Source: a phage. Taken from it: a DNA stretch of 64,000 nt. This document shows positions 22,327 to 53,175 of the stretch, one piece after another; positions within the stretch are counted from its first letter, which is position 1; each line of letters begins with the position of its first letter. The notes below the pieces were generated by a model. The model did not search any database, was not told the DNA's origin, and worked only from the letters and a program-made list of their open reading frames with translations. Position numbers and translations under genes: made by a program. The stretch lies in NCBI GenBank assembly GCA_024683775.1, contig GCA_024683775.1_4106.1; one strand, given 5' to 3'.

Positions 22327-22333
22327 CCTGTAT

Positions 22334-23470: not shown

Positions 23471-23520
23471 ATTTCTTCTCCTTTATTCATTATATCATAT
23501 TTACCTCAAAAAGAAAACCC

Positions 23521-28372: not shown

Positions 28373-28497
28373 TTCAACATATAGACAGGGGAAGCTCCGC
28401 AGGGAAAGCATTGGACAGGCTTTAACAATTAGAAGAATTGTTAAAATTCAGCCTGGACAAATGCGATCACTAGGATTCTCCCCAGGCTAAACCCCGT

Positions 28498-28570
28498 AAT
28501 CATATGTAGTCATAAGTAATCATATATAAACATTTAAGTAATCATTTATAATCACTACTGTGATTAGTAT
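28498..28570. repeat. iteron-like short direct repeats (GTAATCAT units)
   Basis: AAGTAATCAT repeated at least 3 times within ~60 bp, in a region with no ORFs. Confidence 0.4.
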
Positions 28571-29399: not shown

Positions 29400-29590
29400 T
29401 TTGGGTGTAGTTACCCTGGATGGATTTTGGGCGTAGATATGTCTAGCCCTCCAGAAGTCTGGAAGTAAAGATGGCTATCCATCTAGACGGCTAAACGGCT
29501 AGATTTCTGGATGGCTGGATGGCTAGACGTTTGGACGGCTAAACTGCTAGATGGTTACACGTCTGGAAGTATAGACGGCTAAATCAAAAT
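29400..29590. repeat. cluster of short direct repeats (GGATTTTGGG[TC]GTAG; ACGGCTAAA; GGCTAGA; TCTGGAAGTA)
   Basis: Multiple 7-15 bp units repeated 2-4 times each; non-coding context. Confidence 0.5.
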
Positions 29591-30201
29591 TTTATTTTGT
29601 TTTTTCCAATAGTTCCCCTACCGCGTGGGGATAGTTTCCCCGCAGTATCTGGCGTTAGATTTTTCTGAATCTGGAATCATTATCTTATAAACTGGGGGCA
29701 ATGTCAACGACCTGGACGGATATTTTTAAAAATTTTTTCAGTACTGAATTTTGGGCGTAACTATGCACCCGGTGGGCTTGAGTCTTTCTCGACTTGATGG
29801 AACTATTATACAGTACTGAAAAAATAAAGCAATACCCTGGAAGCAAAAAAGTTTTAATTAATTTGCTTGCTATCCTGGGCCGGACTATGGTACTATATTT
29901 CAGTACTGAGAAAGTGCGTTTACCTGCTAGGGTGCGGGAGTGTATCCTTTTTTTATATCTTGAATTTTGGGCGGATCTTCCCACCCCCTGGGGTATCCGC
30001 TTTCTCGCGTCTATGTAGTAATTATACGCTTTTTCAGGATCAAGTCAATACCTAAAAACAAAATAATTGAAAATAATTTAACGCGTTTAAACGGCCTGTA
30101 AAGCCCTGGAATGATTGGAATGGTGCAAATGTATAGCTTATGTGTATTAATGCGTTAGAATGCGTCTGAGGCCGTTTTACGGGGTATAGGGATGATTTAG
30201 T

Positions 30202-30355
30202 GGATTGATTCAGTACTGAATAATAGTACTCCTATATAGAAAGATAGTTCCCCTGGATTGATTCAGTACTGAATAATAGTACTCCTATATAGAAAGATAG
30301 TTCCCCTGGATTGATTCAGTACTGAATAATAGTTCCCCTATATAGAAAGAAAACT
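30202..30355. repeat. three tandem direct repeats of 53 bp
   Basis: Unit GGATTGATTCAGTACTGAATAATAGTACTCCTATATAGAAAGATAGTTCCCCT at 30202, 30255 and (degenerate) 30308. Confidence 0.8.
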
Positions 30356-31829: not shown

Positions 31830-32257
31830 GCAGTTTACAAATCTTTACAATTGCCGGTATTGACTTATTTTGTCAGTACTGGCATAATGTATTCATTGGC
31901 AGATAAGCCGTAGCCCATAGGGTGCGGGAGTGTATCTATAGAAAAATTAGTTTAGTATAGTTACAATTGTGCACCCGGTGGGTTAGCTGTTGTCATGGGG
32001 TATATTATGCCAGTACTTGATAATGCTGTCAATACTTTTTTTTTACTATTCAGTACTGAAAACTATTTTTAAAAAGTACTTGTAAACTATGTTTAAAGGC
32101 GTATAATGTTTTACATCAGGACGGGGAACGAAATAAGTAACTTCCCGTTAAGTAGCCCAGGAGTAAGGCACACGAAAAACTCCCCTGATAAAATAGTTTG
32201 ACAATAGAAAGTAAAAGCGTATAATACTTACATCAACTACTGAATGAGGGTTACAAA

Positions 32258-33603: not shown

Positions 33604-33825
33604 ATGGCTAATATCACTACTCTTTCCCAACTGGAAGCACTGGTTAAATCTATGCGGGAACATGCCGACAAAATCGGCGTACAAGATCCAGCCGTTTGCT
33701 TCTGCGACGAATTGAATGATGATACCCTGGTAATAGCAGAAGTCCAGGACGTTTCTAACTATTCCTCGCGTTACACTGGCGGCGTAGCAAATAAAGGCGA
33801 CTTCTGTTTATACCTTACAAAATAA
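33604..33825 (+). CDS. hypothetical early protein (73 aa)
   Basis: Start at ATG 33604 after promoter and stem-loop GGGAGAAATGGTTCTCCC; SD GAGGAAAA. Confidence 0.65.
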   Translation: MANITTLSQLEALVKSMREHADKIGVQDPAVCFCDELNDDTLVIAEVQDVSNYSSRYTGGVANKGDFCLYLTK

Positions 33826-33828
33826 CAA

Positions 33829-33860
33829 CGCGGGGAGATAATAACTCCCCGTTACTTTTT
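33829..33860 (+). terminator. rho-independent terminator
   Basis: CGGGGAG-ATAATAA-CTCCCCG stem-loop followed by TTACTTTTT. Confidence 0.6.
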
Positions 33861-34068
33861 CAGTACTGAATCATTTAATAGACGGATCTCGGCACCCGGT
33901 GGGTTAGTGACTGTTTCGTCTTGATGTAGTAATTATGCCAGTACTGGATGCACTTGTCAACAACTATTTTTCAAATACTTTTTATTAAAATACTTGCAAT
34001 TAGTTTTTAAACGCGTATAATGTTTTGCATAGGGGGAGCGGTTCCCCTGGTAACTAAGGAATAATAAA

Positions 34069-34947: not shown

Positions 34948-34976
34948 AGCCCACCTGGTGGGCTTTTTTGTTTTTG
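34948..34976 (+). terminator. rho-independent terminator
   Basis: AGCCCACC-TGGTGGGCT palindrome followed by TTTTTTGTTTTTG. Confidence 0.75.
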
Positions 34977-35657: not shown

Positions 35658-35678
35658 CAATTAAAGTACTGAATCACT

Positions 35679-35710
35679 AGCCCACTGTATAAGTGGGCTT
35701 TTTTGTGTTT
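35679..35710 (+). terminator. rho-independent terminator
   Basis: AGCCCAC-TGTATAA-GTGGGCT stem-loop followed by TTTTTTGTGTTT. Confidence 0.75.
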
Positions 35711-37999: not shown

Positions 38000-38152
38000 A
38001 TGAAACAATACAACGCTCGGTTTGATGTTACTATCGGTAACGGCAAAGGTCAATTCTCTTTCAGTACTCGCAAAAGTTATACAGAAAACTTCCTGCGTAA
38101 TTGTGCACTGACCGCCGCTCAAATTAAACATTATTTTCAGGCTAAAAAATGA
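38000..38152 (+). CDS. small hypothetical protein (50 aa)
   Basis: Start at ATG 38000 after promoter + stem-loop + SD AGGAGAAA. Confidence 0.55.
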   Translation: MKQYNARFDVTIGNGKGQFSFSTRKSYTENFLRNCALTAAQIKHYFQAKK

Positions 38153-38238
38153 GATCATTAGCTTATTACAGTTCGGCCCTGGTCGGTGCATTGATCGCGG
38201 CGTTGTTAGTAACCTATCTATTCTTTATGGTGATTTAA
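38149..38238 (+). CDS. putative 29-aa hydrophobic micro-protein
   Basis: ATGA overlap with upstream stop; sequence MRSLAYYSSALVGALIAALLVTYLFFMVI is a single TM-like helix. Confidence 0.35.
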   Translation: MRSLAYYSSALVGALIAALLVTYLFFMVI

Positions 38239-38382
38239 ATGAATCCAACAGGTTTAAACTATAAAAGTTGTTCGGCGTTTACGAAAGCAAATAAAGCGAA
38301 TGCACGTAAAGCGAAAGTACAGGAATACATCAAGCAAGGCATGACGCGAAAGGCGGCGATTCTAAAAGCTAAAAATAAATGA
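38239..38382 (+). CDS. putative 47-aa basic micro-protein
   Basis: TAAATG overlap with upstream stop; lysine-rich. Confidence 0.3.
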   Translation: MNPTGLNYKSCSAFTKANKANARKAKVQEYIKQGMTRKAAILKAKNK

Positions 38383-38384
38383 AA

Positions 38385-38420
38385 AAAGTGGTTGACTCCG
38401 GTCAGCCATTTTGCTATTAT
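38385..38420 (+). terminator. conserved hairpin of the recurrent intergenic module (copy 1)
   Basis: Near-palindrome GTGGTTGACTCCGGTCAGCCAT followed by TTTGCTATTATAT. Confidence 0.5.
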
Positions 38421-38593
38421 ATATTCATTGAGAGATAGCTCACTAGCCCACAGGGTGCATAAGTGTATCTATTATATGAGTATTGAGTACTGAAAACTAT
38501 TTGATAAAAAGTACTTGCAAACTATCTCAATAAGCGTATAATGTTTTACATCGAAAGGGGAAACGGTTTCCCCTGGTAATAAGGAAACGAATC

Positions 38594-38935
38594 ATGACTA
38601 TCTCAATTGCTCAATCTAACTTTGAAAATGAAATCATCGCCCAGGCACTGCGTTTAAATGATGGTCGGGCCGAAATTAATTACGGTTTCAATTCAGGCGG
38701 TTGCGAAAACTATCAGTACTTTGTAACGGCTGATGGCGGTGTCCTGGGTATCAATACAGTTATTGTAAACATCCAAAAAATTAATTTCAATGATCCAGAC
38801 GATAGCCAGTTTTACATCACTGGCGTAGACGTGAACTATGAGGATGACTCACTAACTGATGATTACACTGGCGAGCGGTTAGAAAGTGCATACGGTGAAG
38901 ATGATTATCAGTCCGGTCCAGAAGATTTCGAATAA
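38594..38935 (+). CDS. hypothetical acidic early protein (113 aa)
   Basis: Promoter + stem-loop GGGGAAACGGTTTCCCC + SD AAGGAAA. Confidence 0.7.
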   Translation: MTISIAQSNFENEIIAQALRLNDGRAEINYGFNSGGCENYQYFVTADGGVLGINTVIVNIQKINFNDPDDSQFYITGVDVNYEDDSLTDDYTGERLESAYGEDDYQSGPEDFE

Positions 38936-38948
38936 TATAAAAAAATAG

Positions 38949-38977
38949 TTTGACAATAGATTATAGTACTGTATAAT
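38949..38977 (+). promoter_or_regulatory. sigma70 consensus promoter
   Basis: TTGACA 38949-54, 17-bp spacer, TATAAT 38972-77; followed by GGGGAGAATAGTTCTCCCC stem-loop. Confidence 0.7.
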
Positions 38978-39028
38978 GTTTTACATGAAGGGGAGAATAG
39001 TTCTCCCCACTAACAGAGAGAAAACAAA

Positions 39029-39241
39029 ATGGCTAATATCTGCACTGTACTGAAAAATGCAAAACAAGTTTTATTTTCTGATCACGATCATTTAAACAAG
39101 GATATTACTGGCGTTCGGAATATCAAAGATGTAAAAAGTGTTATGGGTATCTATTGCAATATGAAACGTGTCGGCACGTTCGGCGATAAAGTACTATACC
39201 AGGCAGGGGATTACAATTTTACACTGACTATCATTAACTAA
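39029..39241 (+). CDS. hypothetical early protein (70 aa)
   Basis: ORF with promoter, stem-loop and SD upstream. Confidence 0.65.
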   Translation: MANICTVLKNAKQVLFSDHDHLNKDITGVRNIKDVKSVMGIYCNMKRVGTFGDKVLYQAGDYNFTLTIIN

Positions 39242-39324
39242 AAATATTATCACAGTACTATTGACATAGTTTTATAGTACTGACATAATAACTTTTATCA
39301 ACTACACTACTAAGGAATTAAAAA

Positions 39325-39504
39325 ATGGCTATCATCGCAAAAACTGAAATCGTTGGTCTGGATTCTATCATCATGACGTTTGAAGATCAAAAAGGTATGT
39401 ATGTAGTTTCATATGGTGATTATGTTCGGGAGTATGAAACGGTAGACGAAGCCTTTGAAAGTTATATTCGCCAGGTGAATAAAGCATACGACGACTACCG
39501 CTAA
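39325..39504 (+). CDS. hypothetical early protein (59 aa)
   Basis: ORF below track cutoff; TTGACA-N17-CATAAT promoter at 39261-89; SD AAGGAA. Confidence 0.5.
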   Translation: MAIIAKTEIVGLDSIIMTFEDQKGMYVVSYGDYVREYETVDEAFESYIRQVNKAYDDYR

Positions 39505-39594
39505 AATATATTACCAGTACTATTGACATTGTTTGATAGTACTGTATAATAAGTTTTATAAACAGTAGTTAACTTAACCTAAGAGAGAAATAAA

Positions 39595-39738
39595 ATGATC
39601 GCACTGGATTCATTCATCGACGCAGTACTGGCAAAAACTGGCGAGGATCTGACCGCAGAACAATACGCGATGATCGAGCAATGTCAGCAAAACGGTAAAT
39701 CGGTGAAAGATACTGTTAAGATTATCCGCAAGATGTAA
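39595..39738 (+). CDS. hypothetical early protein (47 aa)
   Basis: ORF below track cutoff; TTGACA..TATAAT promoter at 39523-50; SD AGAGAGAAA. Confidence 0.45.
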   Translation: MIALDSFIDAVLAKTGEDLTAEQYAMIEQCQQNGKSVKDTVKIIRKM

Positions 39739-39837
39739 TATTATAGCCCACTGGTTAACGCTGGTGGGCTATAATCATTTACCCTATACAATGCCAGTAC
39801 TCAACCGTTTATCTCGTTAGAATGCGTTACAGGACGT

Positions 39838-40041
39838 TTGACAATGATTAGCATGAAATCAGTACAAAAACAAATAGAAACATTATCAAAAATTAAACGT
39901 AAACAGTACTCGTTAGAATATACAATCAATGGTAACTATCATCTAATGAAAGAGAATAATTTCATTGTCATTGATGAATCATTGCAAGTTATTAGTATAG
40001 TACTGAAAGCATTAATCAATGACAGAAAAAAATTAAAATAA
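39838..40041 (+). CDS. hypothetical early protein (67 aa)
   Basis: ORF; weak SD. Confidence 0.45.
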   Translation: MTMISMKSVQKQIETLSKIKRKQYSLEYTINGNYHLMKENNFIVIDESLQVISIVLKALINDRKKLK

Positions 40042-40369
40042 TCTATTGACAATATCCTCCAGTACTGGCATAATACTTACATCAAGACGAGAACGTCACT
40101 AACCCATAGGGTGCACAAATGTAACTATATAATATCGATCAATAAATGATCAAAAAGTACTGGATCAATTTAGCATAAGGCGTATAATTCTGATCAATTC
40201 TTGATCAAAGGCAATATACGCAGTTGAATTTATATAGACAGTACAAAGGCGTTACTATCCGTGGTAATGCTGGTGGATATGTAGTATCATATGGTTTGAA
40301 TAAGATAAACACTAGTAGTATTATTGTAGCATTACAGTACTATAGTATTTTTATAATGAGGTTAAAATA

Positions 40370-40627
40370 ATGGCAGTAGGATACGCGAAAGACGGGGCCG
40401 AACAAGACGAGATTCACGCAGTGATTCAGGCAGCCGTTAACCACGCTAGAAAGCAAATTAACGCACAAAGAGAATCACTGGTACATTGCCTCGACTGCGG
40501 CGATAAAATCCCTGAGAATCGACGCCAGGCCGTTATAGGGTGCATGTATTGTATTACTTGCCAGGAGGATCATGATAGTACTTTTAAAAGAGATCCGCGT
40601 AATTGTTGGCATAGATCTATGAGATAA
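40370..40627 (+). CDS. TraR/DksA-like C4 zinc-finger protein
   Basis: C-x2-C-x17-C-x2-C (CLDCGDKIPENRRQAVIGCMYCITC) with the conserved IP.[AE]RR.A motif typical of TraR/DksA zinc fingers; SD GAGG. Confidence 0.6.
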   Translation: MAVGYAKDGAEQDEIHAVIQAAVNHARKQINAQRESLVHCLDCGDKIPENRRQAVIGCMYCITCQEDHDSTFKRDPRNCWHRSMR

Positions 40628-40690
40628 AAAGTATTGACAGTACTGAAAGATAGTGTATAATGTTTTATATCTTAACTGAGGATAGTAATC

Positions 40691-41047
40691 ATGGGAATAC
40701 AACATATCACGCGTACTACTGACAATGGCGAGATCACTGGTTATCAGGTACAGGGCAAAGTAGCACAATTGCAGTACTGGTTTGTTAAACGTGGAATCAT
40801 TGCACCGGATCTTGATTATGACCGTGTAGCGTTTATTGATTCTCTTTATGTTGATCCTGATAGTCGGGGCAATGGTGAAGGTAACGAATTAATGAATGCC
40901 TTTATTGATGCCGCCGATGATTCAGATTGTATCATCTTAGAATGCGATACGGGAGAAGATAACGCCTTTAATCTTAAAGAATGGTACGAAGGTTTCGGAT
41001 TCGAGGTACTGATCGATAGTGAATATCCTATCATGATTTTATCATAG
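40691..41047 (+). CDS. hypothetical protein with weak GNAT-acetyltransferase-like motif
   Basis: VDPDSRGNGEGNELM resembles the GNAT motif A ([QR]-x-x-G-x-[GA]); TTGACA..TATAAT promoter at 40633-60. Confidence 0.4.
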   Translation: MGIQHITRTTDNGEITGYQVQGKVAQLQYWFVKRGIIAPDLDYDRVAFIDSLYVDPDSRGNGEGNELMNAFIDAADDSDCIILECDTGEDNAFNLKEWYEGFGFEVLIDSEYPIMILS

Positions 41048-41125
41048 TACTTGCATTTAGTTTTCAGTACTGTTATAGTACTTGCATCAAGGGGAAACAT
41101 CTTCCCCTACTAAGAGGAAATAAAA

Positions 41126-41314
41126 ATGGAAAACTTATCAAGTATTTTAGTACAAGATGATTTCGGTAATCCTGGAAGTGCTATCATTGTTCGGGGCAAT
41201 AAAGCAACGTTTGTTATTGCTGGTGGACCCGTACAGCGTAGCATTAAAAATAATGCTGTTACCATTAATAATGTACGCTATCGCTTAGATAAAGAATTAA
41301 TTCATAAACTGTAA
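41126..41314 (+). CDS. hypothetical early protein (62 aa)
   Basis: Promoter-like box + stem-loop GGGGAAACATCTTCCCC + SD GAGGAAA. Confidence 0.6.
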   Translation: MENLSSILVQDDFGNPGSAIIVRGNKATFVIAGGPVQRSIKNNAVTINNVRYRLDKELIHKL

Positions 41315-41399
41315 AAAAGTACTGGACAATAGATTATAGTACTGTATAATAGTTTACATGAAGGGGAGAAATGATTCTCCCCACTAAGAGGAAAGAAAA

Positions 41400-41612
41400 A
41401 TGCAAGGTCAACTAATCGTTCGTAAATGGTCTGATACTAACGAAAAACCGTGGGATGTACAATACATCGCCCCAAATGGTGAATCCAGATATCAACCAGG
41501 TGTAACGCATAGTACTGAGCAATTCGCCGCCGCTCATCGCGAACGTCTGTTACAATCAATGCAGCACGGTTCCGGTGAAAAATTCATTCAGGATCATTGG
41601 CTGAAAGATTAA
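41400..41612 (+). CDS. hypothetical early protein (70 aa)
   Basis: Promoter + stem-loop GGGGAGAAATGATTCTCCCC + SD. Confidence 0.65.
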   Translation: MQGQLIVRKWSDTNEKPWDVQYIAPNGESRYQPGVTHSTEQFAAAHRERLLQSMQHGSGEKFIQDHWLKD

Positions 41613-41698
41613 AAAGTACTTGCACAGTACTGAATAAAGTGTATAATGTTTTATATCGGAAGGGGAATAGTTCCCCTCCTAACAAAGAGGAAAGTATA

Positions 41699-41872
41699 AT
41701 GGTCCAGGTAGAATTAACAGTACTGAAAGATCTGTTTTATCGGATTGGTACTACTGGCGAATATCCGAAGGGTGATAATGCAAAACTTTACGTATCACTC
41801 GACTTATGGCAACGCGAACAATTAGCAACGGCCTGGCGTAAAGGCAAAGCAGATAGCGAGGTGAAAGCATGA
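41699..41872 (+). CDS. hypothetical early protein (57 aa)
   Basis: Start at ATG 41699 after promoter + stem-loop GGGGAATAGTTCCCC + SD AGAGGAAA. Confidence 0.55.
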   Translation: MVQVELTVLKDLFYRIGTTGEYPKGDNAKLYVSLDLWQREQLATAWRKGKADSEVKA

Positions 41873-42018
41873 AAGAATTCTTATTTGAAGTAGTGTTTCA
41901 AGGTGTCGGTAATAACCAACTGATTCGATCAAGTGGTTATAATGTTAACCAGGCATGGAATAACATTAAACAAATGTACCCGAACGCTATCACATATCGC
42001 AACCCGAAAGAAGTTTAA
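41869..42018 (+). CDS. hypothetical early protein (49 aa)
   Basis: ATGA overlap with previous stop; ORF below track cutoff. Confidence 0.4.
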   Translation: MKEFLFEVVFQGVGNNQLIRSSGYNVNQAWNNIKQMYPNAITYRNPKEV

Positions 42019-42030
42019 AAATAATTGAAA

Positions 42031-42056
42031 AAGGGATTGACTCCGGTCAGTCCCTT
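42031..42056 (+). terminator. conserved hairpin of the recurrent intergenic module (copy 2)
   Basis: AAGGGATTGACTCCGGTCAGTCCCTT near-palindrome followed by TGCTATTATATA. Confidence 0.5.
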
Positions 42057-42343
42057 TGCTATTATATACGCATAGAAACAAATTAGCCCACCGGGTGCAT
42101 AAATGTATCTATTGTTTGCTGGTGGCTAGTACTATCAAGTACTGAAAACTATTTTTAAAAAAGTACTTGCAAAGTATCACGATAAGCGTATAATGTTTTA
42201 CATCAGGACGGGGAACGAAATAAGTAACCCCGTTAAGTAGTCCAGGAGTAAGACATACGAAAAACTCCCCTGATAAAATAGTTTGACAATAGAAAGTAAA
42301 CGAGTATAATACTTACATCAACCACTGATAAGGAAACATTAAA

Positions 42344-42619
42344 ATGCGGACTTTACTTACAGCTAACGAAATCGAGCAAGTACTGACTACTAATCTGGAA
42401 CAATGGAAACGTGAAGCAGATATCCAGGCGGTTCAATGCCTTAACGATAAGTTAACGCCAGATGACTTAAGCACGATTGTTGATCCACAATTTTATGAAG
42501 ATATTCACGACACGTCTTTAAGCGTCGAGGATGTACTTGATAAGCACTACATTGATACTGATTTACATGTTTACGGTCGTAAAAACTTTATCACTATTCA
42601 CGACATTTACAATACTTAA
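42344..42619 (+). CDS. hypothetical early protein (91 aa)
   Basis: Two promoter-like boxes upstream (42165-42200, 42280-42315); SD AAGGAAA. Confidence 0.65.
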   Translation: MRTLLTANEIEQVLTTNLEQWKREADIQAVQCLNDKLTPDDLSTIVDPQFYEDIHDTSLSVEDVLDKHYIDTDLHVYGRKNFITIHDIYNT

Positions 42620-42707
42620 GTATTGACAAAGTATCTTAGTACTGTATAATAGTTTACATCAAGTGAGGGGAAACGGTTCCCCTCCTAACAAAGAGAGAGA
42701 AATTAAA

Positions 42708-42890
42708 ATGGCTAAGTGCACTATCTGTAAGAAAGAAATCGTATTAGTTCCAAGTGCCCGTGAACGTGCCGCTCGGTTCGGTGGCAAAGCGTCAGACTAT
42801 ACAAAAATGTTTACTGCCCATGCAGCTTGTCAAGTAGCAAAACGTTCACAAGAAAGCGTAGAATTAATGCGTAAACTTTCCAAAAAATAA
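42708..42890 (+). CDS. hypothetical early protein (60 aa), cysteine pair CTIC + CQ
   Basis: Start at ATG 42708; promoter + stem-loop GAGGGGAAACGGTTCCCCTC upstream. Confidence 0.6.
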   Translation: MAKCTICKKEIVLVPSARERAARFGGKASDYTKMFTAHAACQVAKRSQESVELMRKLSKK

Positions 42891-42977
42891 GTATTGACAA
42901 AGTATCTTAGTACTGTATAATAGTTTACATCAAGCGAGGGGAATGGTTCCCCTCCTAACAAAGAGAGAGAAATAAAA

Positions 42978-43301
42978 ATGGCTATGATCCTTACCCAGAA
43001 AGTAGAACTGAAAATTGTAACCTCCTTTGACATTAAAGTTAATCGGTGGACTGATAGCCACGGCAATACTTACCACTCCTGCTACGTGTCCGCATTGATT
43101 GGTGATCGCTGGGAAGACCTGGGACACGAAACCTTTACATACGGTTACGGCACACAAGGTGAGTACACGGGTTTAGAAATCATTAAGGAAACTGTAATAG
43201 GTTTCAACCCGAAAGAGAAAGTACTACACAGAATTGAGAAAGAGATCAACAAAGAAATTACAGTTCGCTACTACGATGTAAAACGTAAGAAAGACATGTA
43301 A
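42978..43301 (+). CDS. hypothetical early protein (107 aa); paralog of 36490
   Basis: Promoter + stem-loop + SD; similarity to 36490 ORF. Confidence 0.7.
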   Translation: MAMILTQKVELKIVTSFDIKVNRWTDSHGNTYHSCYVSALIGDRWEDLGHETFTYGYGTQGEYTGLEIIKETVIGFNPKEKVLHRIEKEINKEITVRYYDVKRKKDM

Positions 43302-43400
43302 TAGAATCCATTTAAAGTACTATTTGACATTGCCCAGATAGTACTTTATAATAGACTCTAACTTGTAGTACTAATTAACTTAACTAATAGGATGTACACC

Positions 43401-43796
43401 ATGATTACTAAATTCTTCGCTACCCGTGAACAAGCTCGCATCGTTGCCCGTGAGGAAGGTGAAACATTTAAAGACATGGGTAAAGATTCTCCTACTGGTA
43501 AACGCTGGGCGGTACAGTTCAAAGAGATCTCTGATATTGTGAATTCACCTGAGCCTGTACTTACAGCAGCAGAACTAAAGCAAGCTCAAGAACTGGCTGA
43601 AGTACTGAACGCTCAAGATGACTTCTTGAAAGGTTCTGATATTGAAGTTACAGTTAACGCAAATGCATGGACTCACGCGGATCACCTGGCAAACCTTAAG
43701 CGTCCAAGTGAACTGATTCGCAACCAGAAAGAGATCCGACACGACCGTAAGGGTAATCGTGTAACAGTATACAGTAAACGCCGCCAGGTTATCTAA
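43401..43796 (+). CDS. hypothetical early protein (131 aa); paralog of 31245
   Basis: Start chosen at ATG 43401 (AGGA SD 9 nt upstream); similarity to 31245 ORF. Confidence 0.65.
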   Translation: MITKFFATREQARIVAREEGETFKDMGKDSPTGKRWAVQFKEISDIVNSPEPVLTAAELKQAQELAEVLNAQDDFLKGSDIEVTVNANAWTHADHLANLKRPSELIRNQKEIRHDRKGNRVTVYSKRRQVI

Positions 43797-43818
43797 TAAC
43801 TTGCAGTACTAACAACAC

Positions 43819-43843
43819 GGCGGGATCAGTTCCCGCCTTTTTT
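43819..43843 (+). terminator. rho-independent terminator
   Basis: GGCGGGA-TCAGT-TCCCGCC followed by TTTTTTA. Confidence 0.7.
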
Positions 43844-43857
43844 ATAGGACAAACAAA

Positions 43858-44112
43858 ATGATTAAGGTTCAACTATATAAAGATAACATCTTACGGGTAC
43901 ACTATAAAGCACCTCAGAGAATCATCACAAAGGCCGTACAGCTTGCTAATGAGTTTATTAATGGTAACCTATTACCTAGGAAGTTAAGCAACGGGAAACT
44001 GCGTGTAATCGACGTGGACACTAACAACAGGATAGTAATCGAGAACACAGGAAAGATAAACCTTTATGAGCATCAACAATACAATAAGAAAATAAAACTA
44101 ATATCACGTTGA
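43858..44112 (+). CDS. hypothetical protein (84 aa)
   Basis: ORF with SD AGGA. Confidence 0.55.
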   Translation: MIKVQLYKDNILRVHYKAPQRIITKAVQLANEFINGNLLPRKLSNGKLRVIDVDTNNRIVIENTGKINLYEHQQYNKKIKLISR

Positions 44113-44165
44113 CAGTACTCAATTGTTTTAGTACTATGTACACATACCAACACGGGAGAAACAAA

Positions 44166-44384
44166 ATGAAATTATCTAAAATCGAAAAGAAAACTATTGA
44201 TGAAGCAGTTAAGCACGGTTATACCTTTCGTAATGATTCACATTTTACCAATTTTCAACAAGGGTATCGTACTATTAAAAAACTAATTGACAAAGGTTTA
44301 TTAGTTGAAGTCAATAACGGTAACGGTATCGAGTATCAACCAACACAAGACGCATTTTATTTTAAGAAATATAATATTATCTAA
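44166..44384 (+). CDS. hypothetical protein (72 aa)
   Basis: Start at ATG 44166 with SD GGGAGAAA. Confidence 0.55.
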   Translation: MKLSKIEKKTIDEAVKHGYTFRNDSHFTNFQQGYRTIKKLIDKGLLVEVNNGNGIEYQPTQDAFYFKKYNII

Positions 44385-44442
44385 TTGACAGTACTCAATT
44401 GTTTTAGTATTATGTACACATACCAACACGGGGGGAAACAAA

Positions 44443-44685
44443 ATGATTACTTTAGAAAAACGTATCAAAGAAACTACATCGCTGGTGGAACTGTTAACAG
44501 TACTCAAATGTAAAACAACACCATTCAGCACGCCGGACTTTATTAATATGGTTGATGTTAATGGTCGCTATCGTATCACGGTCGAACAAGGAGCGGCGAA
44601 AGTATTCAGTACTAAAAACACTAAGGAAGTGATCCACGCCGTTAATGTTAAAAAAGTAGTTGCCATTGATAGTAAAGTACTGTAA
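44443..44685 (+). CDS. hypothetical protein (80 aa)
   Basis: SD GGGGGGAAA; upstream region duplicates that of 44166 (TTGACAGTACTCAATTGTTTTAGTA.TATGTACACATACCAACACGGG). Confidence 0.55.
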   Translation: MITLEKRIKETTSLVELLTVLKCKTTPFSTPDFINMVDVNGRYRITVEQGAAKVFSTKNTKEVIHAVNVKKVVAIDSKVL

Positions 44686-44716
44686 TATAGTTTCATTAAC
44701 TCAAGGAGAACATGCA

Positions 44717-45301
44717 ATGCGTAAATATACTAAATTCATCCGTACACTGTCAGAAATGGAAACCAACAAAGAGATCCTTTCAGCTTGTCGGTTAGCTGGC
44801 CTGGAGATCATCGGTGCTGGTTCTTCCCGTATAGTATTCGCTTTAAATGATCGGTTAGTGATTAAGGTCGCGAATTGTGATGCGGGTGTCGAACAAAATG
44901 AAACTGAATGTAAGGTATGGAATTTTTTAGACTATGACCGCCCTCAGTTGAAACAGTACTTTGCAAAGGTGCATATGCATTTATGCGATCCTGATAATAT
45001 GTTTATCGTTATGGATCGGTTGAGTACTGCAAGCAAAGGCAGTGTGAAGCACGTAAACGCGTGCAATGAATTAAAGTACAATATTAAACGTAATGCAATC
45101 GAACGCCAGCACCGCTTTGCTGATGCACTACAACACGTTGATGATACATTATCAACACTAACGATAAGAGATATCAGAAAACAGAATATCGGCCAGGATC
45201 GTAATGGACTTATTAAAGTACTTGATTACGGTTTAACCAGCAATATCTGGAATCAGTACTATAAAAAGCGTGATGTGGCAGCAAGTAAGGTAACACGATA
45301 A
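44717..45301 (+). CDS. putative protein kinase-like protein (194 aa)
   Basis: Motif order matches a kinase fold: GAGSSRIV (Gly-rich loop), VIKVA (VAIK-like Lys), IRDIRKQN (catalytic loop D..N), LDYG (DFG-like); SD AAGGAGAA. Confidence 0.5.
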   Translation: MRKYTKFIRTLSEMETNKEILSACRLAGLEIIGAGSSRIVFALNDRLVIKVANCDAGVEQNETECKVWNFLDYDRPQLKQYFAKVHMHLCDPDNMFIVMDRLSTASKGSVKHVNACNELKYNIKRNAIERQHRFADALQHVDDTLSTLTIRDIRKQNIGQDRNGLIKVLDYGLTSNIWNQYYKKRDVAASKVTR

Positions 45302-45312
45302 AAAAGATTAAA

Positions 45313-45340
45313 AAAGGGATTGACTCCGGTCAGTCCCTTT
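45313..45340 (+). terminator. conserved hairpin of the recurrent intergenic module (copy 3)
   Basis: AAGGGATTGACTCCGGTCAGTCCCTTT then GCTATTATATAT. Confidence 0.5.
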
Positions 45341-45525
45341 GCTATTATATATCCATTGAGAGATAACTCACTGACCCATAGGGTGCGGAAGTGTATCTAT
45401 TATATAAGTATTCAGTACTGAAAACTATTTGATAAAAAGTACTTGCAAACTATCTCAATGAGCGTATAATGTTTTATATCGAGAGGGGGAAATGGTTCTC
45501 CCTGGTACTAAAAGGAATCAAGACG

Positions 45526-45747
45526 ATGACTACTATGACCTGCGTTCACGCTTCAAATCTTCTGAATGATGCAGCATTTAAAGCAGGTGAAGAATATCAA
45601 TGCTATCGGGATGAAAATAAAAAAGTTTTCGTCGTTGATGCTAACGGTTTCCATATTGAATTGCAATCCGGCTTCACTGGTTTAAATGGTAAATCAGTAT
45701 GGGGCGTTAATGATGATAATGGTCTTTATCACTTTATCCGTAATTAA
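45526..45747 (+). CDS. hypothetical early protein (73 aa)
   Basis: Start at ATG 45526 after promoter + stem-loop GGGGGAAATGGTTCTCCC + SD AAAGGAA. Confidence 0.6.
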   Translation: MTTMTCVHASNLLNDAAFKAGEEYQCYRDENKKVFVVDANGFHIELQSGFTGLNGKSVWGVNDDNGLYHFIRN

Positions 45748-45751
45748 GTAT

Positions 45752-45779
45752 TTGACAAAGTATATCAGTACTGTATAAT
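45752..45779 (+). promoter_or_regulatory. sigma70 consensus promoter
   Basis: TTGACA 45752-57, 16-bp spacer, TATAAT 45774-79; stem-loop GGGGAGAATAGTTCTCCCC 45792-45810. Confidence 0.7.
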
Positions 45780-45831
45780 AGTTTACATCAAGGGGAGAAT
45801 AGTTCTCCCCGATACTAAAAGGAATAAAATC

Positions 45832-46239
45832 ATGACTACTACCAATCAAGCTCGGAACATCACCAACGATAAAAATCATGCTGCAATGGTCGCTGGATAC
45901 ATTGAAGCTATGCAATTCAGTACTGTATACAATGAGAACGGCGATTACCTGGAAGATTATGAATTATCAGAGCAAGCCCATCAAGCGGCAGTGATTGCAT
46001 GTTCACGTTTCCTTGCTGTACATGGTGAAGATATGGAAACAGTACAAAAACACCATAATCCTGATTATACTTATAGTCATGCAGGTCATGATCTCTTTCT
46101 TACTCGCGAAGGTCACGGCACTGGTTTTTGGGATCGTGGTTTAGGTCACTATGGCGATGTATTCACGAAGTACTGCGAAGAAATCAACGTTTGCGATCCC
46201 TATGTAGGCGATGATAACTTAATCTATATGGGCGAATAA
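45832..46239 (+). CDS. hypothetical early protein (135 aa), His/Gly-rich C-terminal half
   Basis: ORF with promoter, stem-loop, SD AAAGGAA. Confidence 0.7.
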   Translation: MTTTNQARNITNDKNHAAMVAGYIEAMQFSTVYNENGDYLEDYELSEQAHQAAVIACSRFLAVHGEDMETVQKHHNPDYTYSHAGHDLFLTREGHGTGFWDRGLGHYGDVFTKYCEEINVCDPYVGDDNLIYMGE

Positions 46240-46328
46240 AAGTATTTGACAAAGTATATCAGTACTGTATAATAGTTTACATCAAGGGGAGAATAGTTCT
46301 CCCCACACCAATAAAAGGAAACAAAATT

Positions 46329-48071: not shown

Positions 48072-48098
48072 AAAAGGGATTGACTCCGGTCAGTCCTT
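48072..48098 (+). terminator. conserved hairpin of the recurrent intergenic module (copy 4)
   Basis: AAGGGATTGACTCCGGTCAGTCCTTTT then GCTATTATATA. Confidence 0.5.
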
Positions 48099-48302
48099 TT
48101 GCTATTATATACGCATAGACAAAAACTAGCCCACAGGGTGCATAGGTGTATCCAAAATATATAGTTAATAACGGTGAGTAACTATCTGCTGGTGGAACTA
48201 AAACTATTAATAAAAAAGTATTGACAAAGTATATCAGTACTGCAATAATGTATCTCGTAGGGCGGCAATGGTGCGACGGCCCACAAAGTTAGGAGATTCA
48301 AA

Positions 48303-48638
48303 ATGACTACTTCAATCGCTATCGTTAAAGCTTTCATCCGTACTAATGTTTCCTCTGTATTCATCGACGGCCTCGACCGTAACGTAGAATACTCAATCAT
48401 TATCGCACAAACGGCAAACGGTTCTCGGTACATCCTGAATGATAGTGAAGCAAATCACTACTACTTCACTAAAGCCACTGGCTTTAAACGCATCGATGCT
48501 GATGTAGTATACGCTAAGATGAATAAGCTGGTAGACAAGATTAACGCGAAAGGTACTATCGATTTACAGTACTGGACCGAAACCGATCCAGAGTATGGAT
48601 CTCACCGCTACCTGAATCCAGGTATTAAAATGAAATAG
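48303..48638 (+). CDS. hypothetical early protein (111 aa)
   Basis: TTGACA..(spacer)..GCAATAAT promoter-like box at 48223-48250; SD AGGAGA. Confidence 0.65.
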   Translation: MTTSIAIVKAFIRTNVSSVFIDGLDRNVEYSIIIAQTANGSRYILNDSEANHYYFTKATGFKRIDADVVYAKMNKLVDKINAKGTIDLQYWTETDPEYGSHRYLNPGIKMK

Positions 48639-50462: not shown

Positions 50463-50671
50463 ATAGCATTAACTCAAATCTATATACCGAACGCGTCGCT
50501 GCAAGACAACTTGAAATTCTCATAGTATATGAAGAGACTGATGATTTGAACTTAGCATTAGTATTGGAAAATGATATACTATTGGGTGCATTCCTCGGCA
50601 CAGATTATCAGGAGCACTTCTTGAATGAGTATATAATTGCACTCCAGAAATACATTAAGAGCAAACTATGA
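50459..50671 (+). CDS. LGTNYQ-family small protein, member 5
   Basis: ATGA overlap; core FLGTDYQEHF; close paralog of member 4. Confidence 0.65.
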   Translation: MNSINSNLYTERVAARQLEILIVYEETDDLNLALVLENDILLGAFLGTDYQEHFLNEYIIALQKYIKSKL

Positions 50672-50886
50672 AACATTTAAGTAATTCCGAGAAGAATAAA
50701 ATTATCATTGCTGCAATAAACAAATATTTTACACTTCCTCACACAGAAGGTTTATGTGTAAGGGAACACAGGATAAACACCACCGATATACGCATGATGG
50801 CTGTACTGGGGACGAACTTTCAGGAAGAGTATGTTGTTGCACACATAGTTGCCCTCACTGATCTAATAAGGGACAAATGTAAATGA
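50668..50886 (+). CDS. LGTNYQ-family small protein, member 6
   Basis: ATGA overlap; core VLGTNFQEEY. Confidence 0.65.
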   Translation: MKHLSNSEKNKIIIAAINKYFTLPHTEGLCVREHRINTTDIRMMAVLGTNFQEEYVVAHIVALTDLIRDKCK

Positions 50887-51140
50887 AACACTTAACACTA
50901 GATGAATATGAAACTATAGTCCGTAAACTAACCCCTATAGCAAGGATAGTCTACGATGACCCCAGCCTTACATGGAACCAAATGCGAGCTAAAGTTAATG
51001 AGCTATGGTTGCTGTACTTTATGGGGACTCAATATCAAGATAAGTTTTGCACAGAATATGTCGAACAATTAATGAATGTTATACAGGATAAACTAGATGA
51101 TTATTGGCTCACAAAACATGAAGACTTTATCAGGAGTTGA
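50883..51140 (+). CDS. LGTNYQ-family small protein, member 7
   Basis: ATGA overlap; core FMGTQYQDKF. Confidence 0.6.
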   Translation: MKHLTLDEYETIVRKLTPIARIVYDDPSLTWNQMRAKVNELWLLYFMGTQYQDKFCTEYVEQLMNVIQDKLDDYWLTKHEDFIRS

Positions 51141-51369
51141 GTATCAAACTGCCCTATTCTCTTTAATCCATACCCTTAGAAAAAACAATGCCTTACATGG
51201 TGCACCTGAAGTGGATGTTATCAACGGTGAACTTTATCTTATGAAATTCATTGGAACAAACTATCAAGATCTGTTCATTCAACGATACTTATCAGCATTA
51301 AGAAACCAAATCCAATATAAAACCATCAAGGCCAAAAAAGAATGGAATAAACAATGCGACACAGACTAA
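51118..51369 (+). CDS. LGTNYQ-family small protein, member 8
   Basis: Start chosen at ATG 51118 (tracked ORF starts 51097); core FIGTNYQDLF. Confidence 0.6.
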   Translation: MKTLSGVEYQTALFSLIHTLRKNNALHGAPEVDVINGELYLMKFIGTNYQDLFIQRYLSALRNQIQYKTIKAKKEWNKQCDTD

Positions 51370-51605
51370 ATCACAAAATGTATTGTAAACTATTACAGAC
51401 ACTGGCACAGAAACACTATGACACGGTATCTGGAATATTACCCTATGATATCATGCGTTTACTTCACTGTGAGGCCGAGATGCTTGTACTGATGACAGGC
51501 ACTGATAAAAAAGCAATTGTCAAATCAATAGATATGTTCATCGAAGCACAATGTCAACACATTAGAACCGAGATATGGAGGCGAGAGAATGATAACCCTA
51601 AATGA
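51354..51605 (+). CDS. LGTNYQ-family small protein, member 9 (divergent core LMTGTDKK)
   Basis: ORF in array; start uncertain. Confidence 0.5.
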   Translation: MRHRLNHKMYCKLLQTLAQKHYDTVSGILPYDIMRLLHCEAEMLVLMTGTDKKAIVKSIDMFIEAQCQHIRTEIWRRENDNPK

Positions 51606-51804
51606 GTTTCAGTATCATTGGAGATTACAAGCTATAAGAAGGAAAGTTGTTAGTATTTCTTTAGACAAGTCTATTGCACAAGAGGACAAATGTGTTATAA
51701 TAGCTGAAATGAAGTTGGGTGCTTTCGTAGGGACAAACTATCAAAACATCTACACTGACGTATTGTTAAGTGCCTTACGTAACAAGGTGATATCAAAAGA
51801 ATGA
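51589..51804 (+). CDS. LGTNYQ-family small protein, member 10
   Basis: core FVGTNYQNIY. Confidence 0.65.
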   Translation: MITLNEFQYHWRLQAIRRKVVSISLDKSIAQEDKCVIIAEMKLGAFVGTNYQNIYTDVLLSALRNKVISKE

Positions 51805-52019
51805 GAAAATTACAAGGCTTTGAATACATCAGACTCCTGAAAACATGCACCAGCAGAAGGAAAATCTTATCAAGCAACAAGAGCATCCCTGCCAACCTAA
51901 AACATGCAATGATAGCTGAACTCTATGTAGAAGCACTCATAGGGACAAACTATCAACAAATGTATATAGACATGTGGGTTGATGCATTAGTCAAGGAGAT
52001 CAAAAGTAAATGCAAATGA
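51801..52019 (+). CDS. LGTNYQ-family small protein, member 11
   Basis: ATGA overlap; core LIGTNYQQMY. Confidence 0.65.
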   Translation: MRKLQGFEYIRLLKTCTSRRKILSSNKSIPANLKHAMIAELYVEALIGTNYQQMYIDMWVDALVKEIKSKCK

Positions 52020-52228
52020 TTAATTTAAGTAAAGATGAATATTATGATCGTCTTGCAAAAACTTATCCAGCACGTAACGCCGTTTATAATAGTAACATTA
52101 TTGAACGCTCAAAGAAGTTGATTGTAGTAAATGAGATTAAGATGCTTTCAGTCTTAGGAACAAACTATCAAGAGAATGCTGTACTGTTGTTAATTGATGC
52201 CCTCAAGAGAGAGATACAAAGTAAATGA
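52010..52228 (+). CDS. LGTNYQ-family small protein, member 12
   Basis: core VLGTNYQENA. Confidence 0.65.
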   Translation: MQMINLSKDEYYDRLAKTYPARNAVYNSNIIERSKKLIVVNEIKMLSVLGTNYQENAVLLLIDALKREIQSK

Positions 52229-52461
52229 TTCATTTATCTTACCATGATTATCAAAAACGTTTAAATGCATCAAGGGATATAAGGATTCAAATCTTCAATA
52301 ACAAAAAATTGAAACCTGATAACAGAAGAATCAAAATGATAGAAGCAGAGTTATGCAACTTCCTGGGGACGAACTATCAGGCAGGTAAGGTAAAAAACTA
52401 TCTTAGAGAACTAATGAATTGTATCGAAAATAAATGCGATGCTTTGGAGAATAAAAAATGA
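52225..52461 (+). CDS. LGTNYQ-family small protein, member 13
   Basis: ATGA overlap; core FLGTNYQAGK. Confidence 0.65.
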   Translation: MIHLSYHDYQKRLNASRDIRIQIFNNKKLKPDNRRIKMIEAELCNFLGTNYQAGKVKNYLRELMNCIENKCDALENKK

Positions 52462-52715
52462 TCAATTTAAGTAAAGATGAATATACCGAGCGTATGACAA
52501 AAATTACACACAAACGTAATACAATCTATCACAACCAAAAAATTCAACACAGTAAGAAAATGATTATGATGCGTGAGTTAAAGATGGGTGTATTCTTGGG
52601 AACAAACTATCAAGAGCCAGAAGTAAATCGATTAATTGATGAGTTACTATTGGAAATCAAAGGTAAGCTGTACTTTTATCAAATGACCCGTCCACTAAGG
52701 TGTACTGATCGATGA
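52458..52715 (+). CDS. LGTNYQ-family small protein, member 14
   Basis: ATGA overlap; core FLGTNYQEPE; N-term MINLSKDEY like member 12. Confidence 0.65.
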   Translation: MINLSKDEYTERMTKITHKRNTIYHNQKIQHSKKMIMMRELKMGVFLGTNYQEPEVNRLIDELLLEIKGKLYFYQMTRPLRCTDR

Positions 52716-52954
52716 ATATTGTGAATAACATCAGATTAGCAGAAAGATTTGATAGAATTGGGGAAGCTATGAGAAGATACGATAAAGAATATGGTCATTT
52801 AAGCTTTACGATAGAAAAGAGATATGAACTTGAAGCAGAGTTTAAAATGCAGTTCCTTTTAGGTACACAGTATCAAAACCAATATGTAGAAAAATGGATT
52901 TCACTTTTAATCCAGACAATTTACGTAAGGAACATTAAATGCAAAATGAAATGA
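52712..52954 (+). CDS. LGTNYQ-family small protein, member 15
   Basis: ATGA overlap; core LLGTQYQNQY. Confidence 0.65.
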   Translation: MNIVNNIRLAERFDRIGEAMRRYDKEYGHLSFTIEKRYELEAEFKMQFLLGTQYQNQYVEKWISLLIQTIYVRNIKCKMK

Positions 52955-53175
52955 TATACTTAACACATGATGAGTTAACAGAAAGACTAGATAAATCCAA
53001 AAAACTTACAAAATATCTTCCACACAACCCAAACCAAACCCCAGCAGAAAGGAGTGCAGAAGTTTTATTCCAAACATTACCATACCTTCTTGGAACTGAT
53101 AGGCAAGAGTATCATATTGAACGTATAATTAAATATCTCAAAATTACTATTATGGAAAAAGTAAATGCAAAGTGA
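52939..53175 (+). CDS. LGTNYQ-family small protein, member 16
   Basis: core LLGTDRQEYH; N-term MQNEMIYLTHDEL. Confidence 0.6.
   Translation: MQNEMIYLTHDELTERLDKSKKLTKYLPHNPNQTPAERSAEVLFQTLPYLLGTDRQEYHIERIIKYLKITIMEKVNAK

Follow-up and report, generated by a model that had tools for sequence, protein, structure and literature searches.

Predicted terminator hairpins with a built-in promoter and a conserved promoter-proximal unit in the terminal repeat of a RaK2-like jumbo coliphage

Composite intergenic motifs that unite a terminator and a promoter, the PeSLs, have been described for the T4-type phages RB49/phi1, T4/PST and KVP40/nt-1; their stem-loop lies mostly between the -35 and -10 elements, and for RB49/phi1, experiments have demonstrated promoter as well as terminator activity (Arbiol et al. 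2010, PMC2839356; Comeau et al. 2014, PMC4122927). In PA5oct, a related jumbo phage of the same wider clade as the one considered here, highly transcribed non-coding RNAs are found in a 39-kb direct terminal repeat (Lood et al. 2020, PMC7318152). The subject of this work is a 64,000-nt stretch of phage DNA (contig GCA_024683775.1_4106.1 of assembly GCA_024683775.1; hereafter the window), in which a preliminary description had recognized a ~200-bp intergenic module, repeated at least four times, as a boundary element between transcription units. Judged by its 90-98% identity to Asteriusvirus genomes, the source is an Asteriusvirus-type (RaK2-like) jumbo coliphage. The architecture considered probable for the modules is a terminator with an embedded promoter (P1), followed by a separate conserved transcribed unit and a second promoter (P2).

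The four copies reported at 38385-38597, 42031-42240, 45313-45525 and 48072-48250 are indeed present, the named segments having been located by inspection and alignment. Their parts are as follows; the scores in bits refer to a covariance model of the conserved unit, H2 is one of its two possible core hairpins, and type A units are those that have no 5′ hairpin.

38385..38412, plus strand: module 1, predicted terminator hairpin (12-bp stem, UCCG loop), 3 nt past the stop codon of the open reading frame (ORF) 38239-38382
38392..38420, plus strand: module 1, predicted promoter P1, TTGACT-17-TATTAT with a TG extended -10; the -35 (38392-38397) lies in the 5′ arm of the hairpin
~38427, plus strand: module 1, predicted start of P1 (promoter scan)
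38427..38475, plus strand: module 1, conserved unit (52.6 bits), with 5′ hairpin at ~38429-38442, CUAG, core CCCACAGGGTGC at 38447-38458, H2 at 38454-38469, then UAUUAU
38486..38502, plus strand: module 1, AGTACTGAAAACTATTT, with an AGTACT palindrome within
38515..38596, plus strand: module 1, early promoter P2, TTGCAA-16-TATAAT (38515-38542; repeat families D1/D4), then stem-loop 38557-38573, Shine-Dalgarno (SD) sequence 38582-38586 and ATG 38594
42030-42057, plus strand: module 2, predicted terminator hairpin with embedded P1 (-35 at 42037-42042, -10 at 42060-42065)
42072..42120, plus strand: module 2, conserved unit of type A (A-rich AUAGAAACAAAUUAG in place of the 5′ hairpin), core 42087-42098 (46.7 bits)
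42118..42125, plus strand: module 2, Chi octamer GCTGGTGG
42138..42346, plus strand: module 2, downstream part with AGTACTGAAAACTATTT, P2 42167-42194, a ~85-nt structured leader, a third promoter 42283-42310 and ATG 42344
45313-45340, plus strand: module 3, predicted terminator hairpin with embedded P1 (-35 at 45320-45325, -10 at 45343-45348)
45355..45408, plus strand: module 3, conserved unit with 5′ hairpin, core CCCATAGGGTGC at 45375-45386 (51.7 bits)
45414..45528, plus strand: module 3, downstream part with AGTACTGAAAACTATTT, P2 45443-45470, 5′ stem-loop, SD and ATG 45526
48073-48100, plus strand: module 4, predicted terminator hairpin with embedded P1 (-35 at 48080-48085, -10 at 48103-48108)
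48115..48163, plus strand: module 4, conserved unit of type A, core 48130-48141 (50.9 bits)
48188..48305, plus strand: module 4, downstream part with Chi 48188-48195, a TTGACA-17-AATAAT promoter 48221-48249, stem-loop and ATG 48303

The repetition is not a matter of chance resemblance: the 20-mer GGATTGACTCCGGTCAGTCC and the 25-mer AGCCCACAGGGTGCATAAGTGTATC (with up to three mismatches) each occur three times in the window, with 0 expected in shuffles. The palindrome of copy 1 is a compensated version, AAAGTGGTTGACTCCGGTCAGCCATTTT, and the motif of copy 3, with more than three mismatches to the 25-mer, retains the core. Pairwise alignment, chosen beforehand as the test that could refute the repeat, reveals similarity well beyond the promoter consensus, so that the refutation fails. 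In the initial ~85 nt, which comprise everything from the hairpin up to and including the motif hairpin, identity amounts to 79-90% in all six module pairs; random 86-nt pairs of the same region average 50% and reach 58% at most. Past the motif, identity drops to 44-59% in every pair other than 1/3, while copies 1 and 3 stay at 85% up to the start codon. The full ~200 bp is consequently common only to these two copies (85-86%; repeat family D14, 202 nt at 88%), the pair that had been reported as near-identical over more than 150 bp including the SD region. The list of segments said to be shared by all four holds for the hairpin and the motif; copy 4 has no AGTACTGAAAACTATTT, and both its second promoter and its stem-loop differ from the standard ones. 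The ORFs flanking the four modules show no significant protein similarity and are not paralogues, which indicates that the modules were copied independently of their genes and not, as had also been considered, along with them.

In all four modules, the near-palindrome begins 3-16 nt past a stop codon and passes a terminator scan (12-bp stem, 4-nt loop, U-tract), and the same sites carry terminator annotations in phages G17 (ARNOLD-based) and UE-S1. Together with GCTATTATATA, however, the near-palindrome is in itself a strong sigma70-type promoter. Its elements are TTGACT, a 17-bp spacer and the extended -10 TGcTATTAT, with an A6-7 tract upstream and the -35 placed within the 5′ arm of the hairpin. 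The interpretation of the modules as a terminator followed by the next promoter is therefore sound as regards the terminator-like hairpin after the stop codons and the promoters behind it, and has to be amended in that each module contains two promoters in tandem. Across related phages, 21 distinct versions of the hairpin can be distinguished (12-14 bp, -13 to -19.5 kcal/mol), with compensated outer stems (GGGA/TCCC, GTGG/CCAT, GTAC/GTAC, GGGG/CCCC, AAGG/CCTT and GGC/GCC) and mostly UNCG loops (UCCG, UUCG, UACG). In these versions, the 5′ arm has TTGAC without exception and the 3′ arm shows changes that wobble pairing accommodates, an asymmetry expected of a stem that doubles as a -35 element; a TATTAT or TATACT -10 always follows the U-tract. 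Hairpin-type P1 sites are located no more than 45 nt past the end of a co-directional ORF in 53 of 55 cases, compared to 28 of 62 for the plain promoters of the unit. Collectively, these features point to an intrinsic terminator with a built-in sigma70 promoter in a PeSL-like layout, both activities being predicted from the sequence.

The boundary-element interpretation is thus essentially the known PeSL concept, extended here to a new phage group and to a form, likewise new, with two promoters. Like PeSLs, the modules are repeated intergenic composites of ~100 bp with a strong sigma70-like early promoter, AT-rich upstream sequence and a stable stem-loop (for which termination is predicted here); their 3′ end consists of an SD, and the ORFs next to them, in early regions that are plastic, are small and of unknown function. 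Several differences are evident as well. The host of these elements is an Asteriusvirus (RaK2-like) and not a member of the Tevenvirinae, and the cassettes are situated inside a ~21-kb direct terminal repeat. The stem is capped by a UNCG tetraloop and carries the -35 in its arm, a second promoter lies ~120 bp downstream, and between the two promoters there is a conserved transcribed unit that is not described in PMC2839356 or PMC4122927.

This unit corresponds to the AGCCCACAGGGTGC... motif, which had been taken for a component of the boundary. It proves instead to be a separately conserved, promoter-proximal element that also follows other promoters, on either strand, and recurs in RaK2, GAP32 and CBB-like phages. 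Its core, CCCAYMGGGTGC, is found nine times in the window on both strands (0.21 expected), each time preceded, at ~20-30 nt and on its own strand, by the -10 of a good promoter, the promoter types being different. With a covariance model built on 59 cores, 10 matches are obtained in the window, all between 29.7 and 48.2 kb; nine of them are full (32-53 bits) and the tenth is truncated. Nothing is found in the 43 kb of the window outside the repeat, and the next best score is 13.6 bits. The count of at least four was therefore correct and understated, given nine full cores, the truncated one and a partial module at 32044-32243. In related loci, the model gives 94 and 63 matches. The motif was also detected by a pattern scan of IMG/VR in eight contigs, mostly of ~345-378 kb and two shorter (109 kb and 5.8 kb), and by a metagenome scan in 20 further loci. 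From RaK2-like phages and metagenomes, 119 context-distinct copies of the unit were gathered, and in 117 of them a promoter with 9 or more matches in 12 positions precedes the unit, its -10 ending 19-30 nt upstream, the distance between -10 and unit showing modes at 21 and 26-28 nt.

The copies of the unit in the window outside the four modules are the following.

33822..33960, minus strand: stand-alone unit copy, promoter TTGACA-17-CATAAT at 33960-33932, core 33903-33892, then TTCAGTACTGAA; the terminator at 33851-33831 is shared with the convergent upstream gene, and the predicted RNA has ~100 nt
31860..32032, both strands: convergent pair of units, plus-strand promoter 31860-31888 with core 31914-31925, minus-strand promoter 32032-32004 with core 31982-31971
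40046..40136, plus strand: further unit behind a plain promoter TTGACA-17-CATAAT, core 40103-40114
29743..29840, minus strand: mirror-image module, core 29776-29765, then TTCAGTACTGAA and a leftward promoter on that strand
29928..29957, plus strand: truncated unit that has no CCCAYA, with H2 followed by T7 as a canonical intrinsic terminator

These occurrences bear on the simplest explanation of the repeats, according to which they are plain duplicated boundary elements, the motif being functionless in itself and common to them through recent block copying. The 85-88% identity of modules 1 and 3 over ~200 bp, SD included, beside unrelated genes demonstrates that recent copying or gene conversion does occur. 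As an account of the motif, however, this explanation appears highly improbable, since the motif is kept in RaK2, GAP32, CBB-like and metagenomic phages despite divergence of their promoters, 5′ hairpin and downstream sequence, and since it stands within the window also behind unrelated promoters and on the opposite strand.

A search of Rfam 15 at gathering thresholds gives no match in the whole 64 kb and, at E values up to 10, none on the unit core between 29.0 and 49.5 kb. One weak match touches a module, rpsL_ricks at 41911-42068 (30.2 bits, where the gathering score is 60; E 6.7), and it overlaps only the hairpin and P1 of module 2. Scanning of the window for tRNA and tmRNA is equally negative, and the CsrA GGA core is absent from the unit. 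The 26-nt unit pattern, searched for as a host counterpart or object of mimicry, has zero matches in 185,579 bacterial and archaeal genomes. The genome papers on CBB, RaK2 and fEgEco12 mention at most RpoD-like promoters and terminators and never this element. The conserved promoter-proximal unit is thus apparently undescribed.

The unit is ~45 nt long and consists of an optional 5′ hairpin, CUAR, the near-invariant CCCAYAGGGUGC, RGARR, UGUAUC and UAUA. In type B units, a hairpin of 3-5 bp with a 6-8-nt A/G-rich loop forms at the same position in each of the 33 distinct 5′ segments; the stems are numerous and unrelated, which amounts to clear compensation. None of the 13 distinct 5′ segments of type A folds, an A-rich tract being present instead. 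The 12-mer CCCAYAGGGUGC is almost invariant among ~109 distinct cores. Exceptions are GGGUGG in three sequences and GGGUGU in one, two of the GGGUGG sequences also having C instead of G as the H2 partner; in one sequence CCU...AGG replaces CCC...GGG, and several have a 4-nt instead of a 3-nt loop. Two overlapping hairpins can be drawn in the core, either the G·U-rich H2 (GGUGCR-NNNN-UGUAUC) or RCCC-AYA-GGGU. Pairing in H2 amounts to 89-90%, as compared with 23-54% when the partner is slid, and two C-G to G-C swaps are seen. The core is above all a conserved sequence. The possibility that the leader contains a mini-ORF was ruled out, the candidate GUG and AUG codons not being conserved.

Such a frozen sequence is unusual for a purely structural RNA and raises the question of whether the motif works as DNA, as an operator or roadblock, as the upstream box of a middle-type promoter (CCCAYA, 17 bp, TATWNT) or as a T4-like R-loop origin composed of a promoter, a G-cluster and an AT-rich unwinding region. 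The -10-like TATWNT located 17 bp past CCCAYA, the occurrence in either orientation and always at gene boundaries, and the T4-like replication genes carried by these phages (PMC5259590) are consistent with a DNA site. On the other hand, the motif is not a palindrome, and it keeps its own promoter at a near-fixed distance in 117 of the 119 copies; the promoter spacing, moreover, varies by the exact length of the covarying RNA hairpin. The H2 variants are G·U-compatible in the sense-strand RNA only, the -10-like element is just 60-77% conserved at its key positions, and in antisense units a promoter there would yield only a terminator-length RNA. Because the motif is tied to its own promoter, with a spacing that shifts by the RNA-hairpin length, action as a DNA site is considered decidedly improbable.

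The surroundings of the unit also bear on its possible role. Classified roughly by what comes downstream, 88 context-distinct copies fall into several groups. In 24, a second unit lies inverted at a fixed spacing, giving convergent pairs; at least 21 have the next early promoter behind them, as in the modules; 17 run into a strong intrinsic terminator at a constant distance of 20-24 nt; and a single copy stands immediately before an SD and ATG, so as to form a direct 5′ untranslated region (UTR; locus L018, position 12611). A second scan of slightly wider scope gave 20 terminated copies, of which 19 are directed towards the 3′ end of an ORF that converges on them and stop at the terminator shared with it, 2-14 nt from its stop codon. 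At least 20 copies, including 33822-33960, have their own promoter and terminator, which define a short transcript containing no ORF. The slot of the unit is always between a gene's terminator and the next early promoter, in either orientation, and this makes a product RNA more plausible than a leader acting purely in cis.

An alternative is a cis-acting leader that affects its own transcript or polymerase; in its favor, the unit lies upstream of genes in the four modules and once forms a direct 5′ UTR. It could be an antiterminator that lets the P1 polymerase pass the next terminator at which the P2 polymerase stops, an attenuator that alternates between the two overlapping hairpins, or a processing or stability element. 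The antiterminator version has a model in the put RNAs of HK022, which are cis-acting, promoter-proximal antiterminators that act on downstream operons. By analogy, the unit would likewise be a short structured RNA just past early promoters, made by host RNA polymerase and present in more than one copy. The unit always lies 14-21 nt from the predicted start. Its two core hairpins have GGGU in common and so exclude each other, a constraint that would account for the frozen sequence as well. Also in favor of a leader are the copy truncated at 29928, where H2 and T7 make a canonical terminator, and the U5-U7 runs after H2 in some relatives. Unlike put, however, many units face gene ends or each other. 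A downstream gene is absent for the 19 of 20 terminated units that face a convergent 3′ end and for the 24 units in convergent pairs, and is present only for module-type copies, so that in terminated and convergent positions a leader has nothing to regulate. The dedicated strong terminators 20-24 nt past the core indicate that H2 is not relied upon for termination, and type A units have no first hairpin at all. H2 is unlikely to be a general terminator of the unit, because at least 17 units have a separate strong terminator 20-24 nt further on. A cis-acting leader is, on balance, regarded as unlikely.

A different parallel is offered by the OOP RNA of phage lambda, which is single-copy and overlaps the end of the cII coding region. 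The stand-alone copy at 33822-33960 would resemble it as a short promoter-to-terminator RNA that converges on the 3′ end of a neighbour. The present units differ from OOP in that the overlap is confined to the shared terminator and in that their conserved core exists in multiple copies. The repeat RNAs of PA5oct are similar in being non-coding, in lying among the early genes of a long terminal repeat and in depending on host RNA polymerase (predicted for the present unit); there are two of them, single-copy and of 236-451 nt, in contrast to the short, multi-copy unit described here. They were ruled out as relatives, as the best covariance-model score in the PA5oct repeat is 7.6 bits and no sequence relationship was found.

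The reading of the unit that these contexts favor is action in trans as an RNA product, a regulatory or decoy small RNA that would be abundant right after DNA entry and recognized through its sequence by a protein or RNA partner; expectations for and against this are evenly balanced. Around 10 copies of the unit are present per terminal repeat, each behind a near-consensus host promoter, hence about 20 per virion genome. More tentatively, and with considerable doubt, the CCCAYAGGGUGC unit may represent a new class of immediate-early phage RNA that is recognized by sequence and serves as a device for host takeover or anti-defence; it may, for example, be a decoy for an RNA-binding protein, a nuclease or a defence sensor, or may reprogram its own polymerase.

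Several observations weigh against this interpretation of hairpin and unit. The U-tract of the terminator is short, UUU(U) followed by GCUAUUAU, and weaker than the canonical one. The literature searched holds no transcript, 5′-end or 3′-end data for any phage of the group; promoters, start sites and terminators are therefore all predictions. The four modules have no terminator of the unit before P2, so a discrete small RNA would require processing or read-through there. With regard to folding, the covariation of H2 does not exceed that of shuffle controls, and the alternative hairpin RCCC-AYA-GGGU depends on a single compensated sequence (CCU/AGG); covariation support for the core hairpins is weak because the core is almost invariant. 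Predicted folds of the whole transcript are only marginally better than those of shuffles (z -1.4 to -1.6). A closing helix between 5′ AUAGA/AGAUA and 3′ UAUCUAU, frequent in single-sequence folds, was rejected, as matched and mismatched combinations give -3.63 and -3.47 kcal/mol, respectively (permutation p = 0.2).

Taking these points into account, the following course of events may be proposed. The 12-bp UCCG-loop hairpin and its U-tract would end transcription of the upstream gene, for which the T4-type PeSLs provide an experimental precedent. The same DNA would act as the sigma70 promoter P1, with the -35 in the ascending arm and the descending arm plus U-tract as the 17-bp spacer; with P1 built into the terminator, host RNA polymerase would restart exactly at the point where it stops. 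From P1, the ~45-nt non-coding unit would be transcribed, its conservation being observed and its function presumed. The AGTACT palindrome, accompanied by Chi in two of the four copies, comes next, and P2, the 5′ stem-loop and the SD would then drive the following gene. In the four modules, the unit would double as a long 5′ leader; elsewhere it would behave as an independent genetic element, found as stand-alone ~100-nt RNAs, in convergent pairs and once as a direct 5′ UTR. P2 (TTGCAA-16-TATAAT) is preceded by AT-rich AAAAAGTAC. A minus-strand promoter out of the TATCTATTATA segment was ruled out in modules 1 and 3, where it has neither a -35 nor a TG element.

The position of the modules in the genome follows from comparison with relatives. 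Window positions 38,000-46,000 match 92 phage records, Asteriusvirus jumbo coliphages being the best: vB_Ec-M-J is 94.7% identical over 100% of this segment, and 121Q, G17 and UE-S1 are among the other good matches. Base 1 of vB_Ec-M-J corresponds to position 28,675, and collinearity extends through ~49,555, that is, over its annotated 21,525-bp direct terminal repeat; the promoter-dense stretch with the modules is therefore the terminal-repeat early region. In the related phage fEgEco12, a repeat of 20,993 bp has been verified experimentally (PMC13070987). Between 29.5 and 49.4 kb, a scan finds 102 sigma70-like sites, compared to 64.5 expected from shuffles, and ~45 of them score at least 10/12. 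Positions 28,675 and ~49,555 are the counterparts of both ends of the vB_Ec-M-J repeat; as both fall inside the window, there is unique sequence on either side of the repeat, and the source record thus appears to be a collapsed or permuted assembly.

RaK2-like jumbo phages rely on the RNA polymerase of the host, and dozens of small early genes with unknown functions are located in their ~21-kb repeats. The organization of this repeat has not been described previously; with PeSL-like cassettes building it, a mechanism known only in T4-type phages is extended to a distant group, and the insulation and exchange of early ORFs find an explanation. The terminal-repeat host-takeover regions of T5 and SPO1 are likewise long direct repeats with strong host-type early promoters and small genes, and the present repeat resembles them in its length and in the density of both. 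To our knowledge, no conserved multi-copy non-coding unit occurs in the T5 and SPO1 regions. The unit newly defined here is multi-copy, conserved, promoter-driven and non-coding, and has neither an Rfam family nor a bacterial counterpart. Such an RNA would be one of the earliest phage products in the cell and one of the most abundant, which makes it a candidate for takeover or counter-defence at the RNA level.

The modules had further been suggested to act as substrates for recombination that shuffles early-gene cassettes. In partial agreement with this, close relatives differ by cassette-sized indels bounded, as in PeSL-bearing phages, by promoter/stem-loop repeats shorter than the modules: 42714-42888 and 45834-46240 are absent from UE-S1 and 121Q, and the alignment ends overlap by ~85-96 nt inside the promoter/stem-loop family D15 (~85-100 bp). 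In addition, 40042-40359, which holds a whole unit, is absent from G17 and UE-S1. These three segments are, judging from the alignments, PeSL-like gains or losses of cassettes, at shorter repeats and not at the ~200-bp modules. No rearrangement endpoint among close relatives falls within the modules themselves, and the comparison of gene order proposed for these positions shows the window to be collinear with vB_Ec-M-J and the other compared relatives across all four. A second gene-independent cassette was noticed, 32044-32243 being 90% identical over 200 nt to 42130-42330, the downstream half of module 2; it comprises an early promoter, the ~85-nt leader, a further promoter TTGACA-16-TATAAT and then ATG. 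Two hairpins closed by a long stem are predicted for the ~85-nt leader (consensus -18 kcal/mol). This identity and that of modules 1 and 3 indicate past gene-independent copying.

The Chi octamer is strongly enriched, with 13 occurrences in the window against 0.72 expected (2287+, 29252-, 29264+, 35724-, 35786+, 39760+, 40269+, 41219+, 42118+, 44481+, 46386+, 47965+ and 48188+). Ten of the 11 plus-strand sites lie at 29.2-48.2 kb, inside the terminal-repeat part, and they are oriented for RecBCD entry from the right repeat end (~49.6 kb), the nearest being ~1.4 kb away; the complementary site at 29252 is separated from the left boundary by ~0.6 kb. The 11 Chi sites of vB_Ec-M-J are all confined to the repeat, none occurring in the next 8.4 kb. 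Related loci contain 144 sites in 315 kb (~10 expected), often in the promoter spacers of the units. This oriented cluster suggests how long repeats may be protected from, or recombined by, RecBCD.

AGTACT is similarly frequent, with 254 occurrences in the whole window compared to ~22 expected from base composition, the densest part being 24000-48000 (examples at 29737, 30209, 30262, 30315, 31749, 32049, 33859 and 45411). The 12-bp palindrome TTCAGTACTGAA (up to one mismatch) occurs 28 times against 0.26 expected. It is seen in promoter spacers (CAGTACTGTATAAT, CAGTACTGGCATAAT), upstream of the -35 (AAAAAGTACTTGCAA) and between the unit and the next feature, and could be the binding site of a dimeric regulator or an element of promoter architecture. 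A 53-bp tandem repeat at 30201-30350 (2.8 copies, 97% identity), each copy with TTCAGTACTGAA and AGTACT, is non-coding and lies just ahead of the first rightward early promoter; its copy number differs in vB_Ec-M-J. At 34948-34964 and 35679-35699 there are canonical terminators with stems AGCCCAC...GTGGGCT followed by T6, the palindromic counterpart of the AGCCCAC of the unit, which may be collapsed remnants of convergent unit pairs. The covariance model has a weak match of 13.6 bits at 35675-35693.

Further repeat arrays were noted. On the minus strand, 3900-23500 holds ~14 tandem paralogous genes ~1.2 kb apart (repeat families D3, D6, D9 and D10) with a conserved start region, …AAAGGTAACAT on the plus strand or ATGTTACCTTT…, and conserved upstream sequence. 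The non-coding left end of the repeat has short tandem repeats at 29482-29553 (24 bp x 3.0) and 28496-28551 (22 bp x 2.7). On the plus strand, 50500-54650 holds ~11 tandem small paralogous ORFs (~70 aa, ~210-bp spacing) with a common ...GGnACAAACTATCAA segment (family D8), which begin right past the repeat boundary and are tightly packed, with no individual promoters.

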